A stretch of DNA of 64,000 nt from Patescibacteria group bacterium (GCA_041650995.1 JBAZJZ010000001.1:7891-71890), one strand, 5' to 3'; numbered from the stretch's first letter, positions 14,751-20,851 are shown. Translations and numbers: made by a program. The notes: generated from the letters alone by a model not told the origin.

Positions 14751-14909
14751 TCTTAAAAAGACGTCTACTTACTAATAAATTTAATTAAATATAAATCTTA
14801 TCCCGCGAGAATTTACTTTCTGCGGGGAAAATAAAGACGAATTTCAGAATTAATCGCGAATAAATTTTTATTCGCGGTTCCCAATTCTTAATTCGTAATT
14901 TAGAAAAAT

Positions 14910-17663
14910 ATGGCAGAAAAAATCAAAAAAGGCTTTTTTAAAGTATTACCATTGTCGGTGGTAGTATTTTTAGTCATCGGCGTGTCCGTCGGTGTCTGGT
15001 ATAGTTTACCAGTTAACCCGGCTAAGGCAGCTGCCTTAGCGCCTTTGACTACCACATACCTAGACGCGGATGCCGACGGAACAGTTGATAATATCAGACT
15101 TACTTTCACTAATGTTACTGCCTGCACTTATGAAGCGGGTGATTGGGCAGTGGGCGCGGCTGGGACAATAAATGTTACGGCTGTAAATGGTTTTACTAAC
15201 GCTGCTTCTTGTACGACCGATGAATATATCGACGTAGCTGTTACAACTACTCCGGATATTACCGGCGGGGCAGTTGATCCGAGACTTGACTATACAGACG
15301 CGGGTGTGGCAGGAAGTGTAGTCGCCGATGGCAATCAGGATGCGGCTAATTTTACGGCGACTGACGCGGCTGCGCCATATCTTGTTTCCGCAACTTACGC
15401 AGATTCCGACGCGGGTGGTAATATCGATGAAGTTACTTTTGTATTTTCCGAGTCGACAACTTGGACCGCCATGACTGCTGCGGATTGGGCATTTTCAGCG
15501 GTCGGTGATGTTAATTTGGCGGGAGATTTTCTCATTGGCGATTGTACTGCCTCTCCGGCTGTAACCTATACCTGTACTGATGCGGCCAATGCGCACATTA
15601 CTTCCGACGCCAATAAAACCGGTAAACAAACCACGGGAGGAAGTGAGCCAACCTTTACTTATACTAATGCCCACAACGATATCAACGACACAGTCAACAA
15701 TACCGCCACTTTTGGGCCGAGATCTTTAGTTGATGGCGCCGCTCCGTTAATTTTGACGCGCGTCACTAAAGACACTAATTCAACTTCGGGCGCTGCGGGA
15801 ACAGCTGATGGTGATTTGGATGGCGTTCTTGCTACCTTTACCGAGGTCATGGATGCTTCCTCTGTCGCCGTCACGGATTTCGTTATTACTCTAAATGATG
15901 GTACGGCTAAAACCGAAGCATATGCAGACACAACCGATGACACTACTTTATTTTTTGGCTTGAGCAACCCAACTGCCAATGATACTTATGATCTTTTAAA
16001 GTTGCAGATCACTGGTGGTGATGGCATTTTGGATTATGCCGGCGTTAGTTTTGTTGCTGAAGGAGCTTCCTCGGCCGCAACCGATGGCGCTGCTCCAGTC
16101 ATTGTGACCACTTCTCCGGCCGACAACGCAACCGACGTGGCTTTAGACGCAAACCTTGTTATCACCTTCTCTGAACCAATGACTACAGCCTCTGTCACCG
16201 GCGCGATTGCCAGAGTTCCGTCCTTTACTCTTGGTGCGGCAGGTTGGACGGCTGGCAATACAGTCTTGACTTACGCGGCACATGATGCGTGGGCCGGCAT
16301 GCAGAACTACATTATTACCTTAGCTGGAACTATCGCTTCGGCTGCCGTGGGTGATCCTGATCTTGGAACTGGTCCGGTCGCCAATCCCTTTGACTTTACA
16401 ACAGTCGCGGCTTCAAGCGGCGGCAGCAGCGGCGGCAGCAGTTTACCTGCTTCTGTAACCGTCACTGCTCCGAATGGCGGGGAAACTTTGGTCGGCGGTT
16501 CAGCATATAGCATCACTTGGTCTGCGGCGGGTGTCACTGATACTGTGAGCATCTACTACTCCCTTGATTCCGGAATTAATTTCCCATACACCATTGCCAC
16601 GGGCGAAACAAATGATGGATCTTACATATGGACAGTGCCGAACATTGGGACAAGTACTGCTAAAATAAAAGTAGCTGCCGGTTCTTTAAATGATATTTCC
16701 GACGCGAATTTTACAATCACTTATTCTACAACAGAGGTTTCTGCCTCAAACTCTACGATTGTTGCTTCTCCAACCTCAGTTGTTGCCAATGGGACTTCTA
16801 AATCAACCGTTACAGTCACTGTCAAAGACACAAGCAACAATTTGCTTTCCGGCAAGACTGTGACCTTAGCCTCAAGTCGAGGCACTTCTGATACGGTCAC
16901 TACTGTGACGGGTACGACTGGCGCAAATGGCGTTGCCACTTTTGAAGTGAAGTCCGGTACTGCCGGCACTTCAACTTACACGGCGACTGCCGCGGGTGTA
17001 ATTCTTAGCCAAACCGTTTCAGTTGTCTTTTCAGCTCCTGGCGAAACTCCTCCAGTTGGCGAAACCCCAGTTTCTTTGAGCGTTGGCGATTTGATTAAGA
17101 GTAGTTTGAGTTCTTCTGTTTACTATTATGGCTCTGATGGTAAACGCCACGTCTTCCCAAATGAAAAGACTTACAAGAGTTGGTATGTTGATTTTACTGG
17201 CATTAAGATTATTCCCGCTTCTCAACTTCAGGGATTGGCTCTTGGTAACAATGTCACTATCCGCCCCGGCACTGTGCTTGTGAAAATCCAAACAGATCCT
17301 AAAGTTTACGCCGTTGAACCAGGCGGTCTTCTCCGCTGGGTGCCGACCGAAGCCCGCGCCACCACCTTGTACGGTTCTGCCTGGGCGACAAAGATTGTTG
17401 ATGTCCCGGTGGTTTTCTGGGGCGACTATACCTTTGGAAGCGACATAACAACTGATGCTCATCCAACAGGAGCAATAATCCAATATTCTGGCTCAACAGA
17501 CAAGTACTACATCCAGGGATCGGCAAGGCGATTAATCTCCACAGCTGGCTTTACTGCCAATCACTTCCAGCTCGGATACGTCCTTTCTGTTCCAACCACA
17601 TTGTCTTATTCTCTGGGTTCGCCCTTGACTGCTGAGGAGACTGCGCTTACGAGGATTTTTTAG
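14910..17663 (+). CDS. large secreted multidomain surface protein (917 aa), first member of a tandem paralog pair
   Basis: It has a signal peptide (MAEKIKKGFFKVLPLSVVVFLVIG). It carries repeated ~100-aa modules beginning with DADADGTVDNIRLTF / DSDAGGNIDEVTFVF (DxDxDG Ca-loop-like). An SbsA-type Ig-like module follows (APVIVTTSPADNATDVALDANLVITFSEPMTTASV). There is a beta-sandwich module (VTAPNGGETLVGGSAYSITWSAAG...GSYIWTVPN) and a Big_1 module (SNSTIVASPTSVVANGTSKSTVTVTVKDTSNNLLSGKTVTLASS). The C-terminal conserved domain is GDLIKSSLSSSVYYYGSDGKRHVFP...KVYAVEPGGLLRWVP. Confidence 0.7.
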   Translation: MAEKIKKGFFKVLPLSVVVFLVIGVSVGVWYSLPVNPAKAAALAPLTTTYLDADADGTVDNIRLTFTNVTACTYEAGDWAVGAAGTINVTAVNGFTNAASCTTDEYIDVAVTTTPDITGGAVDPRLDYTDAGVAGSVVADGNQDAANFTATDAAAPYLVSATYADSDAGGNIDEVTFVFSESTTWTAMTAADWAFSAVGDVNLAGDFLIGDCTASPAVTYTCTDAANAHITSDANKTGKQTTGGSEPTFTYTNAHNDINDTVNNTATFGPRSLVDGAAPLILTRVTKDTNSTSGAAGTADGDLDGVLATFTEVMDASSVAVTDFVITLNDGTAKTEAYADTTDDTTLFFGLSNPTANDTYDLLKLQITGGDGILDYAGVSFVAEGASSAATDGAAPVIVTTSPADNATDVALDANLVITFSEPMTTASVTGAIARVPSFTLGAAGWTAGNTVLTYAAHDAWAGMQNYIITLAGTIASAAVGDPDLGTGPVANPFDFTTVAASSGGSSGGSSLPASVTVTAPNGGETLVGGSAYSITWSAAGVTDTVSIYYSLDSGINFPYTIATGETNDGSYIWTVPNIGTSTAKIKVAAGSLNDISDANFTITYSTTEVSASNSTIVASPTSVVANGTSKSTVTVTVKDTSNNLLSGKTVTLASSRGTSDTVTTVTGTTGANGVATFEVKSGTAGTSTYTATAAGVILSQTVSVVFSAPGETPPVGETPVSLSVGDLIKSSLSSSVYYYGSDGKRHVFPNEKTYKSWYVDFTGIKIIPASQLQGLALGNNVTIRPGTVLVKIQTDPKVYAVEPGGLLRWVPTEARATTLYGSAWATKIVDVPVVFWGDYTFGSDITTDAHPTGAIIQYSGSTDKYYIQGSARRLISTAGFTANHFQLGYVLSVPTTLSYSLGSPLTAEETALTRIF

Positions 17664-17682
17664 CATAAGGTTAGATAGTTAA

Positions 17683-17716
17683 AAACCAGGCTGGGTTTAT
17701 TCCGGCCTGGTTTTGT
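17683..17716 (+). terminator. rho-independent terminator, identical to the one at 20689-20724
   Basis: AAAACCAGGCTGGGTttattCCGGCCTGGTTTTGTG. Confidence 0.7.
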
Positions 17717-20670: not shown

Positions 20671-20688
20671 ATCAAACAGGATAGAATT

Positions 20689-20724
20689 AAAAACCAGGCT
20701 GGGTTTATTCCGGCCTGGTTTTGT
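20689..20724 (+). terminator. rho-independent terminator, copy of 17683-17716
   Basis: AAAACCAGGCTGGGTttattCCGGCCTGGTTTTGTG. Confidence 0.7.
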
Positions 20725-20851
20725 GTATTTTAAACCCGAATTTTGGTATAATGGTTTTGGGAGGGATGAAAGTTTTCGGCTTTTGGGGCGTTTATATTTA
20801 AAATAGGCCGCAAAATGTGGCTATAATAATTAATTTTTAAAGAAAATTTTT

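Follow-up and report, generated by a model that had tools for sequence, protein, structure and literature searches.

Islands of identity in two ancient tandem surface-protein genes of a Patescibacteria bacterium probably reflect recent short-tract gene conversion

How do two neighbouring genes come to share letter-perfect ends around middles that have drifted far apart? The question is posed by genes A and B, which lie in tandem on the + strand of a 64,000-nucleotide stretch of DNA (the window) from a Patescibacteria group bacterium, and for which an original prediction had offered either gene conversion or cassette-style recombination, with purifying constraint on the signal peptide and anchor as the alternative. 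The explanation that we judge probable, taken as a whole, is that A and B encode exported cell-surface proteins of a Falkowbacteria-like Patescibacteria bacterium, and that they are ancient tandem paralogs in which two islands of identity, of 78 and 39 nt, arose by recent, short, non-reciprocal gene conversion between the copies.

Both open reading frames lie where they had been predicted: ORF calls, Pfam matches and module boundaries place gene A at 14910..17663 (+ strand, 917 aa) and gene B at 17833..20670 (+ strand, 945 aa). Gene A encodes a leader, three β-sandwich modules, a Big_5 domain (aa 392-498), an Ig domain, a Big_1/Invasin_D3 domain (aa 615-705) and a C-terminal domain of ~190 aa; gene B has the same leader, four β-sandwich modules, Big_5 (aa 505-611), an Ig domain, a PETP-rich linker in the place that Big_1 occupies in A, and again the ~190-aa C-terminal domain. 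The middles have thus diverged, as claimed, even in module number, with three 'D-x-A-A-P'-type β-sandwich modules in A and four in B, and Big_1 in A only. The protein of gene A has an identical entry in NCBI/JGI/ENA under the name 'invasin domain 3-containing protein [Patescibacteria group bacterium]', and a model of a gene B module (pLDDT 78.7) is a β-sandwich whose structural matches are generic Ig-like only. Searches of the leader, the N-terminal modules and the C-terminal domain against Pfam (E up to 10), NCBIfam (E up to 1) and PDB sequences returned no family; over A and B they yielded only Big_5, Big_1/Invasin_D3 and a sub-threshold dockerin-like Ca-loop. A prepilin-type (class III) signal, suggested by the KKGF motif, was rejected, the leader reading KKG-FFKVLP with no E at +5; nor did the leader match an N_methyl/TIGR02532-type prepilin motif in Pfam or NCBIfam even at E 1-10. 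S-layers are predicted to be common among Patescibacteria (bioRxiv 10.1101/2024.05.28.596244); the S-layer likeness of A and B is limited to the Big_5 (SbsA-type Ig) domain, and their S-layer status is putative at most. By domain search, A and B lack SLH (PF00395) and any other known cell-wall-anchoring domain. In some distant homologs, SLH replaces the C-terminal domain.

At the 5' end, an exact 78-nt block made up of positions -6 to -1 and codons 1-24, and encoding MAEKIKKGFFKVLPLSVVVFLVIG, occurs at 14904..14981 in gene A and at 17827..17904 in gene B, both on the + strand. The predicted identity of codons 1-24 stands (72/72), with an exact upstream stretch of 6 nt rather than about 8; widened to begin at -9, the block reaches 81 nt with one mismatch. 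At the 3' end, an exact 39-nt block starting 16-17 nt past the stop codon lies at 17679..17717 after A and at 20687..20725 after B (+ strand), so that the terminators are indeed identical (39/39, including the 36-mer first quoted). Their hairpins span 17682-17714 and 20690-20722; that of copy A has a 14-bp stem, a 5-nt loop and a U-run followed by GUG (-24.7 kcal/mol, z = -6.0), and with 7 GC pairs in the stem and a 3' arm ending in UUUU it is a predicted intrinsic (Rho-independent) terminator. Both repeats are direct, their copies 2.9-3.0 kb apart. Predicted promoter-like elements comprise TTGACC-17-TAAAAT at 14550-14578 and TGGTATAAT at 17716-17724 and 20744-20752, and each gene is full length with a promoter-like element and terminator of its own. 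Each block has exactly two copies in the window, against none in 100 shuffles even with 3 mismatches allowed; 5000 column shuffles of the A/B alignment gave a longest identical run of at most 19 nt, and for the same peptide and genomic codon usage the chance of identical independent codon choices over codons 1-24 is P = 4.6e-10. The 78- and 39-nt figures come from an exact-repeat scan, a global pairwise MAFFT alignment of both genes having misplaced the 5' block (longest run 38).

Between these islands the genes are old. Synonymous divergence between A and B (pS, NG86) is 0/16 sites in codons 1-24, 0.77 in the N-terminal modules, 0.74 in the Ig domain, 0.69 in Big_5, 0.61 in the C-terminal domain and 0.54 in the most conserved core of that domain; divergence at the ends and in the core is therefore not uniform (0/16 versus 0.54-0.77), and recent conversion passes the comparison that had been proposed for it. 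With a pS of 0.61, the C-terminal domains must have diverged anciently, and the figure of ~85 % identity given earlier for the 3' domain-coding regions was too high: they are 72.5 % identical over 647 nt and 76 % over 300 nt, with 85 % attained only where windows of 60 nt take in a 29-nt exact match (17319..17347 = 20326-20354, + strand) in the conserved core of the domain. This match holds the 26-mer quoted earlier and is possibly the remnant of an older conversion tract. Of the recombination reading, recent gene conversion at the ends is upheld by the synonymous sites and by the concerted leader described below, whereas the cassette-style picture of conserved ends over a variable core finds no support, since only the 78- and 39-nt islands are recent and the C-terminal domain is old.

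The edges of the leader tract are sharp, falling at -7 and +73. Nucleotides 43-72 of gene A match B at 30/30 positions and A-type leaders at only 17-21/30, while nucleotides 73-150 match A-type genes at 55-58/78 and B at only 31/78. Gene A is a chimera: its first 24 codons come from a B-type leader, and it turns A-type at the break between CDS nt 72 and 73. Since codons 15-24 of A are B-type, A is the recipient of the leader tract and the donor was of type B. The terminator is of the type carried by the first gene in other genomes, yet the second paralog of one relative (L006_2) already carries a related one; with one genome to judge by, the transfer is putatively non-reciprocal.

We compared the pair with four syntenic loci (L003, L004, L006 and L007) from related Patescibacteria/Falkowbacteria, at ~75 % nucleotide identity to the window. 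A search of genome and metagenome contigs with a degenerate back-translated leader pattern added about six contigs and nothing nearer, every match having about 68-80 % identity to the window; neither the relatives at ~75 % nucleotide identity nor the same strain showed an unconverted sister state. The leader peptides of the window and L006 are identical and their DNA differs at 6-7/72 positions, every difference synonymous; within genomes, A and B differ at 0/72 and the two L006 paralogs at 1/72, and six of the differences between the window and L006 are common to both paralogs of each genome. Quartet sites accordingly divide 6 concerted to 0 orthology in codons 1-24 and 35 orthology to 1 concerted in the upstream 150 nt (Fisher p = 1.3e-6 for the contrast). 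The leader has evolved in concert, paralogs being alike within a genome while the adjoining promoters follow orthology. Both window leaders, and they only, have TTA at codon 13, where 16 other leaders have TTG; likewise a T in the terminator stem, forming a G·U pair, is confined to the two window copies, with C in L003, L004, L006 and L007, in all four of which the homologous terminator follows the first paralog.

Outside the islands, by contrast, orthology prevails. What lies upstream of A shares 84-88 % identity with the sequence upstream of the first gene in L003, L006 and L007. L006_2 resembles B both in body and upstream (75-86 %), and L007_2 resembles it in body, at the same position. 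Between A and B the promoters and 5'UTRs show no relationship; each has its orthologs in the other genomes. Because promoters and bodies follow orthology and synonymous sites outside the islands are saturated, the two-gene arrangement predates the split of these genomes and the short tracts are young; the divergent cores are old lineages, with the body and promoter of B orthologous to the second gene of L006 and the body to that of L007. Conversion recurs: every relative has exact patches of its own at other conserved segments, with paralog tracts of 204 and 176 nt in L004, 141 nt in L003, 139 nt in L006 and 59 nt in L007. The L006 tract (139/139) is the core of the C-terminal domain, the same core that holds the window's 29-nt match. 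Large paralogs number two to three per genome, and mosaics occur, P0006 joining a B-type leader to an A-type tail and P0011 an A-type N-terminal region to a B-type middle.

Could nucleotide-level purifying selection alone have kept the leader mRNA and the terminator hairpin exact, with no recombination at all? Across 18 distinct leaders from at least eight genomes the peptide is conserved, and so are many synonymous sites; all 18 retain an 11-bp hairpin at +33..+59, with 99 % of cells paired; the terminator hairpin is strong; and between-genome pS is 0.22-0.45 in the leader, about half that of the C-terminal domain (0.63-0.74). The lower leader pS and the hairpin kept in 18/18 leaders indicate some nucleotide-level constraint on the block, and to that extent the alternative originally set beside recombination is sound. 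Since 6-7 differences separate the leaders of L006 and the window, however, constraint alone cannot yield zero differences within a genome; the same peptide being encoded in L006, those sites are free to vary, yet within each genome they agree. The leader pairs of L007 and L003 differ at 6/72 and 12/72 positions, so identity is not required; ortholog terminators keep the hairpin while changing both stem and loop sequence; and across the 18 leaders the +33..+59 hairpin shows neither compensatory double changes nor any excess over shuffles, the 5' block folding as a single sequence with a z of only -1.5 to -1.7. The six concerted sites of the leader quartet, against none for orthology, largely refute constraint as the sole cause, and we regard it as quite unlikely. 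A further structure, a long 5'-leader hairpin found in gene A only (14837..14896, + strand), is conserved over 8 loci with compensatory changes at 2 pairs, and lies outside the converted tract. Rfam, run on the whole window and permissively on 14300-15050, gave a tRNA elsewhere and otherwise matches at chance level, with no family for this hairpin.

The identical ends might instead be handles of a programmed system of surface variation, by switching or cassette exchange of the pilE/pilS, vls, msp2 or slpA/slpB inversion type. Surface proteins whose ends are conserved and whose middle varies fit that description, direct repeats 2.9-3.0 kb apart could drive deletion, duplication or promoter swapping, and gene number differs between genomes. 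Yet tblastn and blastn of A and B against the 64-kb window recovered full-length paralogs only, with no silent, promoterless partial or extra nucleotide copies, and A and B are themselves complete, with their own promoter-like elements and terminators. Neither a reverse transcriptase (RVT) nor an invertase is among the genes called within ±10 kb, and a Y1 transposase ~4 kb upstream is missing from L004 and L006, which bear the same patches. No TR/VR pair is present, and nothing in the region recurs within the 64-kb window as a further, imperfect nucleotide copy; the A/B blocks, identical with zero mismatches, do not qualify as a diversity-generating retroelement. Two assemblies of one strain, moreover, are identical over A and B. 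Because silent cassettes, a reverse transcriptase and an adjacent recombinase are all lacking in these searches, a programmed cassette system is not supported, and we think one very unlikely.

In Lactobacillus acidophilus, slpA and slpB have nearly identical 5' and 3' ends. These S-layer genes, one of them silent, recombine through sequence that they have in common, and the same motifs recur in the C-terminal, cell-wall-binding parts of both (PMC3666127). The slp genes face opposite ways, and inversion of a chromosomal segment exchanges them behind the one promoter, whereas A and B stand in direct tandem with separate conserved upstream regions, so that inversion switching is impossible for them. 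In silent-cassette systems a single expression site is served by arrays of truncated donors that have no promoter, and it is the variable part that is converted. In Neisseria pilE/pilS, Borrelia vlsE and Anaplasma msp2, too, sequence passes segment by segment and non-reciprocally between related surface-protein genes (see PMC2877794). A and B, by contrast, have no silent donors in the 64-kb window, and it is their conserved parts that are converted.

A recent tandem duplication, its ends untouched and its middle either fast-diverging or replaced by imported DNA through crossovers in the ends, would accord with the mosaics between genomes (P0006, P0011) and with the variation between two and three large paralogs; but synonymous sites are saturated outside the islands, the strongly conserved C-terminal domain included, the promoters and 5'UTRs beside the identical block are unrelated and each orthologous elsewhere, and the body of B stands at the same position in L006 and L007, all of which makes such an event highly improbable. 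That short-read chimerism or repeat collapse created the identical ends is hardly credible, for although both sequences are metagenome assemblies, an independent assembly of the same strain (L001) reproduces both genes base for base, the two differing only in tandem-repeat copy number outside them; its contig name (k141_...) suggests MEGAHIT with k=141, the 78- and 39-nt repeats are shorter than that k-mer and than typical reads, and patches of the same kind occur in four further genomes that come from other projects.

Short-tract gene conversion between ancient paralogs, the reading that we favour, would start only where purifying selection keeps the copies alike enough for strand invasion; candidate sites are the terminator hairpin, the C-terminal core and the leader, whether as peptide or as mRNA. 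Tracts would be short because conversion begins only at such conserved, similar segments, and would stop where the copies cease to resemble each other. With modules and whole genes gained and lost besides, this may have generated the mosaic family. Helicobacter pylori bab paralogs offer a likeness: they have similar 5' and 3' parts and a divergent middle, and form chimeras by gene conversion both 5' (~60-240 bp from the start) and 3' (PMC4552749), with concerted evolution of the bab genes credited to Pride & Blaser 2002 as that paper cites it. As in babA/babB/babC, there is a 5' tract (here nt -6..+72) and a further patch in the 3'-domain core, and the test of within- against between-genome differences gives the same signature. 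The bab genes, however, are scattered over separate loci of a pathogen, and their products are β-barrel adhesins of the outer membrane, while A and B are adjacent, in the same orientation, and encode modular β-sandwich proteins of an environmental CPR bacterium; bab conversion moves a phase-variable CT repeat and has been seen experimentally, whereas no simple-sequence switch is seen in A and B, where the conversion is read from sequence. Unlike in bab, the terminator has also been homogenised. For RecA-type recombination a 39-nt non-coding tract between dissimilar spacers is short, and this speaks against conversion.

The pair belongs to a syntenic locus comprising an ECF sigma factor, a ~1250-aa protein, four to five proteins with the ~190-aa domain, a subtilase and glycosyltransferases. 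Upstream lies a paralog of 562 aa (12306..13994, + strand) with Big_1, the same ~190-aa C-terminal domain and an ordinary signal peptide; downstream, one of 627 aa (20852..22735, + strand) has Big_5, two Big_1, the same C-terminal domain and likewise an ordinary signal peptide. In a 1254-aa protein (6195..9959, + strand) the domain stands at the N-terminus after the signal peptide (tblastn, 6339-6725), an arrangement common among its representatives. The copy in A (17073..17660, + strand, 196 aa) is modelled as three β-β-β-α repeats (pLDDT 95.7), and that in B (20080..20667, + strand) is 67 % identical to it in amino acids. The domain, matchless in Pfam, NCBIfam and PDB sequences, has 4433 cluster representatives, and every named member is from Patescibacteria. 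By Foldseek its only significant PDB folds are EccB1 and EccB5 (E 6e-4 to 5e-3, probability 0.85-0.98), with a global TM of 0.25 and 10-12 % sequence identity. The β-β-β-α repeats of the model thus resemble those of EccB (ESX/type VII secretion) as a fold-level lead rather than a family assignment, the domain differing in its lack of sequence similarity, in repeat number and in context, with no ESX genes nearby. The EccB1 repeats weakly resemble the cell-wall-binding PlyCB, envelope binding being proposed only (PMC4769845). Judging from the model, the C-terminal domain may attach these proteins to the cell envelope, and for CPR surface proteins, whose cell-wall anchor is missing, it is a good candidate.

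It is conceivable, if doubtful, that leader, terminator and C-terminal core act as recombination handles in a RecA-based surface variation that does without silent cassettes and reshuffles promoters, modules and gene number, with the unusually conserved leader serving in addition as a cis-acting mRNA signal, common to the family, through its +33..+59 hairpin. Were this so, episymbiotic bacteria with small genomes would vary the envelope proteins that meet host or phage. The process itself is known for duplicated surface-protein genes; what is new is the setting, a little-studied, uncultured lineage of Patescibacteria (CPR), and a generic literature search for gene conversion in CPR gave only studies of eukaryotic parasites. 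Current ideas are not overturned, and the value of the finding is descriptive, as a handle for later work on CPR envelopes. It flags an abundant, unannotated ~190-aa three-repeat domain and presents a syntenic envelope locus, found in at least five genomes, as a standing hotspot of paralog exchange. Above all, A and B supply what is probably a clean and quantified example of short-tract gene conversion in a bacterium of the Candidate Phyla Radiation, a group of tiny genomes and of lifestyles that depend on cell-surface contact, in which the diversification of envelope proteins is almost undescribed.

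Two large surface-protein paralogs, gene A (14910..17663; 917 aa) and gene B (17833..20670; 945 aa), lie head to tail on the plus strand of the window and share exact sequence at both ends. A 78-nt block (14904-14981 = 17827-17904, plus strand) extends from 6 nt upstream of the ATG to the end of codon 24, while a 39-nt block (17679-17717 = 20687-20725, plus strand), starting 16-17 nt past the stop codons, holds a stem-loop (14 bp around a 5-nt loop; fold energy about -25 kcal/mol, z about -6) with a U-run. Each block has two copies in the 64-kb window and none in shuffles, and the longest identical run in a column-shuffled A/B alignment is ≤19 nt (5000 trials). 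The original prediction was right about these ends and about middles differing in module number: both carry 'D-x-A-A-P' modules (three in A, four in B) followed by Big_5 and an Ig domain, after which A has a Big_1/Invasin_D3 domain and B a PETP-rich linker instead. Its figure of ~85 % identity for the 3' domain was overstated, as identity between the C-terminal domain-coding parts is 72.5 % across 647 nt and 76 % across 300 nt; only 60-nt windows around an exact 29-nt match (17319-17347 = 20326-20354, plus strand) attain 85 %.

Uniform synonymous divergence along the pair, the pattern said to speak against recent gene conversion, is rejected by Nei-Gojobori estimates from the codon alignment of A and B: codons 1-24 show 0 synonymous differences at 16 sites, against pS of 0.77 in the N-terminal modules, 0.69 in the Big_5 region, 0.74 in the Ig domain and 0.61 in the C-terminal domain (0.54 in its 71 most conserved codons, at 83-90 % amino-acid identity). 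Under genomic codon usage, about 11 of the 24 leader codons would be expected to agree by chance, and two independent encodings of the 24-residue leader would coincide with P = 4.6e-10.

Protein A is identical to the NCBI entry 'invasin domain 3-containing protein [Patescibacteria group bacterium]', and the best-matching homologs (55-64 % identity along the whole protein) belong to MAGs of Candidatus Falkowbacteria and other Patescibacteria. We compared four syntenic loci, L003 (GCA_016214745.1), L004 (GCA_965231095.1), L006 (GCA_964567135.1) and L007 (JGI 3300037067), which share about 75 % nucleotide identity with the window across orthologous gene bodies. The gene order common to all runs from sigma-70/DUF5667, a ~1250-aa protein, a Y1 transposase (in some loci only) and a TPR protein, through a 560-aa Big_1 protein, two or three large 'MAE…' paralogs and a ~627-aa protein, to a subtilase with FG-GAP repeats, an epimerase and glycosyltransferases. 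A degenerate leader pattern run over genome and metagenome collections yielded nine more contigs, all 68-80 % identical. The record OZ246416.1 (L004/L012/L013; 886,192 bp) is titled 'uncultured Gammaproteobacteria bacterium'; its locus is syntenic with the Patescibacteria loci at about 70-75 % identity and its single 886-kb chromosome is CPR-sized, and the label is probably wrong.

The leader peptide is the same in the window and L006, with DNA that differs at 6-7 of 72 positions, all synonymous, whereas paralogs within a genome differ at 0/72 (window) or 1/72 (L006). Six window-L006 differences are fixed, that is, common to both paralogs of each genome, and no leader site groups A with the first and B with the second large paralog of L006. 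In the 150 nt directly upstream, by contrast, 35 sites follow orthology and 1 groups paralogs within genomes (Fisher p = 1.3e-6); the DNA upstream of A shares 84-88 % identity with its first-paralog equivalent in L003, L006 and L007, and the DNA upstream of B 86 % with that of the second L006 paralog. Because the leader is concerted and the upstream DNA orthologous, the genes and their separate regulatory regions predate the split of the genomes, and the leader identity is younger. Two derived states present in both window copies likewise point to gene conversion: TTA at codon 13 (TTG in 16/16 other leaders), and a terminator T that forms a G·U pair (C in the homologous terminators of L003, L004, L006 and L007). 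Such a pattern is the textbook mark of concerted evolution through gene conversion, bearing out the process originally proposed for the gene ends.

Past about codon 15, leaders of the family split into a B type (…SVV(V/I)FLV(I/L)G-LAVAFTMPTPQNPGV) and an A type (…SVVMLMIIS-ISLGVWYS(M/L)PV…AKAAALAP). Nucleotides 43-72 of gene A match B at 30/30 positions and the B-type second-gene leaders of L006 and L007 at 25-27/30, against only 17-21/30 for A-type leaders; nucleotides 73-150 match the second L003 paralog and L017 at 55-58/78, and B at 31/78. With a B-type stretch followed by an A-type one, gene A is therefore a chimera with a received B-type leader, and the converted tract spans about -6/-9 to +72. 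In all genomes, the first paralog is followed by a terminator of the sequence type seen in the window; the second L007 paralog has an unrelated one, and the second L006 paralog one that is related but diverged.

Exact patches between paralogs occur in every relative, each at different conserved places: in L006, 119 nt of leader with two mismatches and 139/139 nt in the C-terminal domain core; in L007, 59 + 28 nt in that core (97 % over 60 nt) and 32 nt in the leader; in L004, 204 and 176 nt; and in L003, 141 nt. Within the C-terminal domain, the window/L006 quartet has its concerted-type sites concentrated at nt ~180-360, with orthology-type sites prevailing on either side. The family is a mosaic at the protein level too, P0006 joining a B-type leader to an A-type tail and P0011 an A-type N-terminal region to a B-type middle and tail. 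Conversion between paralogs is general in this locus. Among the three large paralogs of L003, a Falkowbacteria MAG, two are interrupted so that each reads as two ORFs, both breaks lying inside the 141-nt tract identical between them (8101-8241 = 15590-15730), reflecting either a converted frameshift or stop or local mis-assembly of the MAG.

Purifying constraint, the other original suggestion, does act on the leader: the peptide MAE(K/R/Q)IKKGFFKVLP(L/W)S is kept in 18/18 distinct leaders, and between-genome pS is roughly halved there (0.22-0.45) relative to the C-terminal domain (0.63-0.74). Constraint alone, however, cannot make the paralogs of one genome identical where genomes differ at 6-7 positions, and paralog leaders tolerate 6 differences in the L007 pair and 12 in the L003 pair; what it does explain is how such segments remain alike enough for recombination. 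Inside the leader block, at CDS +33..+59 (14942-14968 and 17865-17891), lies an 11-bp mRNA hairpin, AGUAUUaCCAU-UGUCG-GUGGUAGUAUU, paired in 99 % of cells over 18 distinct leaders from at least 8 genomes, its 5' arm nearly invariant, rare codons GTA/TTG/CCA included. Because these 18 leaders show only wobble-compatible single changes, with no compensatory double change and no excess over shuffled controls, it is a candidate RNA structure only. The 5' leader of gene A contains two conserved stem-loops, 14802-14826 and 14837-14896; the latter, the longer of the two, has compensatory changes at 2 pairs (C-G to U-A in 4/8 loci), matches no Rfam family and has no counterpart in front of gene B; it may act in cis to regulate the first large paralog.

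Cassette-style recombination, also raised originally, was not borne out. Searches of the 64-kb window with the region (tblastn, blastn) returned full-length paralogs only, with no truncated silent copies and no template/variable repeat pair, and gene calls within ±10 kb include neither a reverse transcriptase nor an invertase. The Y1 transposase gene some 4 kb upstream is missing from L004 and L006, yet patches of this kind occur there too. Each of A and B has its own conserved upstream region and terminator. Extended -10 elements (TGGTATAAT; 17716-17724 and 20744-20752) directly follow or overlap the two terminators, as in all related loci, and a promoter-like TTGACC-17-TGnTAAAAT site (14550-14578) lies about 330 nt upstream of gene A; together these suggest that each paralog is its own transcription unit, gene A with a long leader. 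In the light of the missing silent copies and enzymes and the separate upstream regions and terminators, there is no support for a programmed cassette or inversion switch. Unequal crossing-over between the direct repeats could still occur, and it would be consistent with the two to three large paralogs per genome.

An assembly artefact is rejected, because a second assembly of the same strain (L001; ENA ERZ27247363, contig k141_335293) is base-for-base identical over both genes; its only differences from the window are in how many copies it has of two tandem repeats lying elsewhere. At 24263-24568, inside the subtilase/FG-GAP gene 22823..25051, a 153-nt tandem unit encoding one FG-GAP-containing 51-aa repeat varies in copy number (product 742 aa in the window, 691 aa in the other assembly), through either real strain variation or repeat collapse. 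A ~103-nt direct repeat (10896-11127), with exact 25-mers (CGGAATGACAGCCTTCAGGCTGTTA, enclosing a small palindrome), also differs in copy number between the assemblies; it adjoins, downstream, the IS200/RAYT-like Y1_Tnp gene 10103..10789, which is present in only some syntenic loci. Two small genes of selfish-element type, GIY-YIG (11967..12236) and DUF559/Vsr-like (14082..14333, flanked by a 37-nt inverted repeat, 14050-14086 / 14447-14483), occupy intergenic spacers, at this locus only in the window's genome among those compared; in L003 a 23S_rRNA_IVP gene takes the first position.

The N-terminal modules are modelled as β-sandwiches (pLDDT 78.7) with generic Ig-like structural matches only. 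The last ~190 aa of A and B form a domain that occurs in five genes of the locus, all on the plus strand: at the C-termini of A (17073-17660) and B (20080-20667), in genes 12306..13994 (13488-13991) and 20852..22735 (22229-22732), and at the N-terminus of gene 6195..9959 (6339-6725). It has no sequence match in Pfam, NCBIfam or PDB, yet finds 4433 cluster representatives at E ≤ 1e-3, in proteins mostly of ~1200 aa, at the extreme C-terminus or directly past the signal peptide; the named members are all Patescibacteria 'hypothetical' or 'Ig-like' proteins. Its model shows three β-β-β-α repeats (pLDDT 95.7), and significant fold matches in the PDB are confined to the EccB periplasmic repeat domains of ESX secretion systems (E 6e-4, probability 0.98, but TM 0.25). 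The domain may anchor these proteins, a role we infer rather than demonstrate because envelope or peptidoglycan binding by EccB1 is itself only a proposal, drawn from weak resemblance to PlyCB (PMC4769845), and the fold match is at TM 0.25.

The closest analogue is the H. pylori bab family, where conversion between gene copies of one genome, in the 5' (~60-240 bp) and 3' regions, yields chimeric adhesin genes and where the ends are described as evolving in concert (PMC4552749). Exchange in the L. acidophilus slpA/slpB pair goes by inversion (PMC3666127), which is inapplicable to direct tandem genes each with its own promoter, and A and B fall outside the silent-cassette systems, with no silent donors in the window. 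The finding is real and well supported, and its mechanism is ordinary; the novelty lies in the lineage and the protein family.
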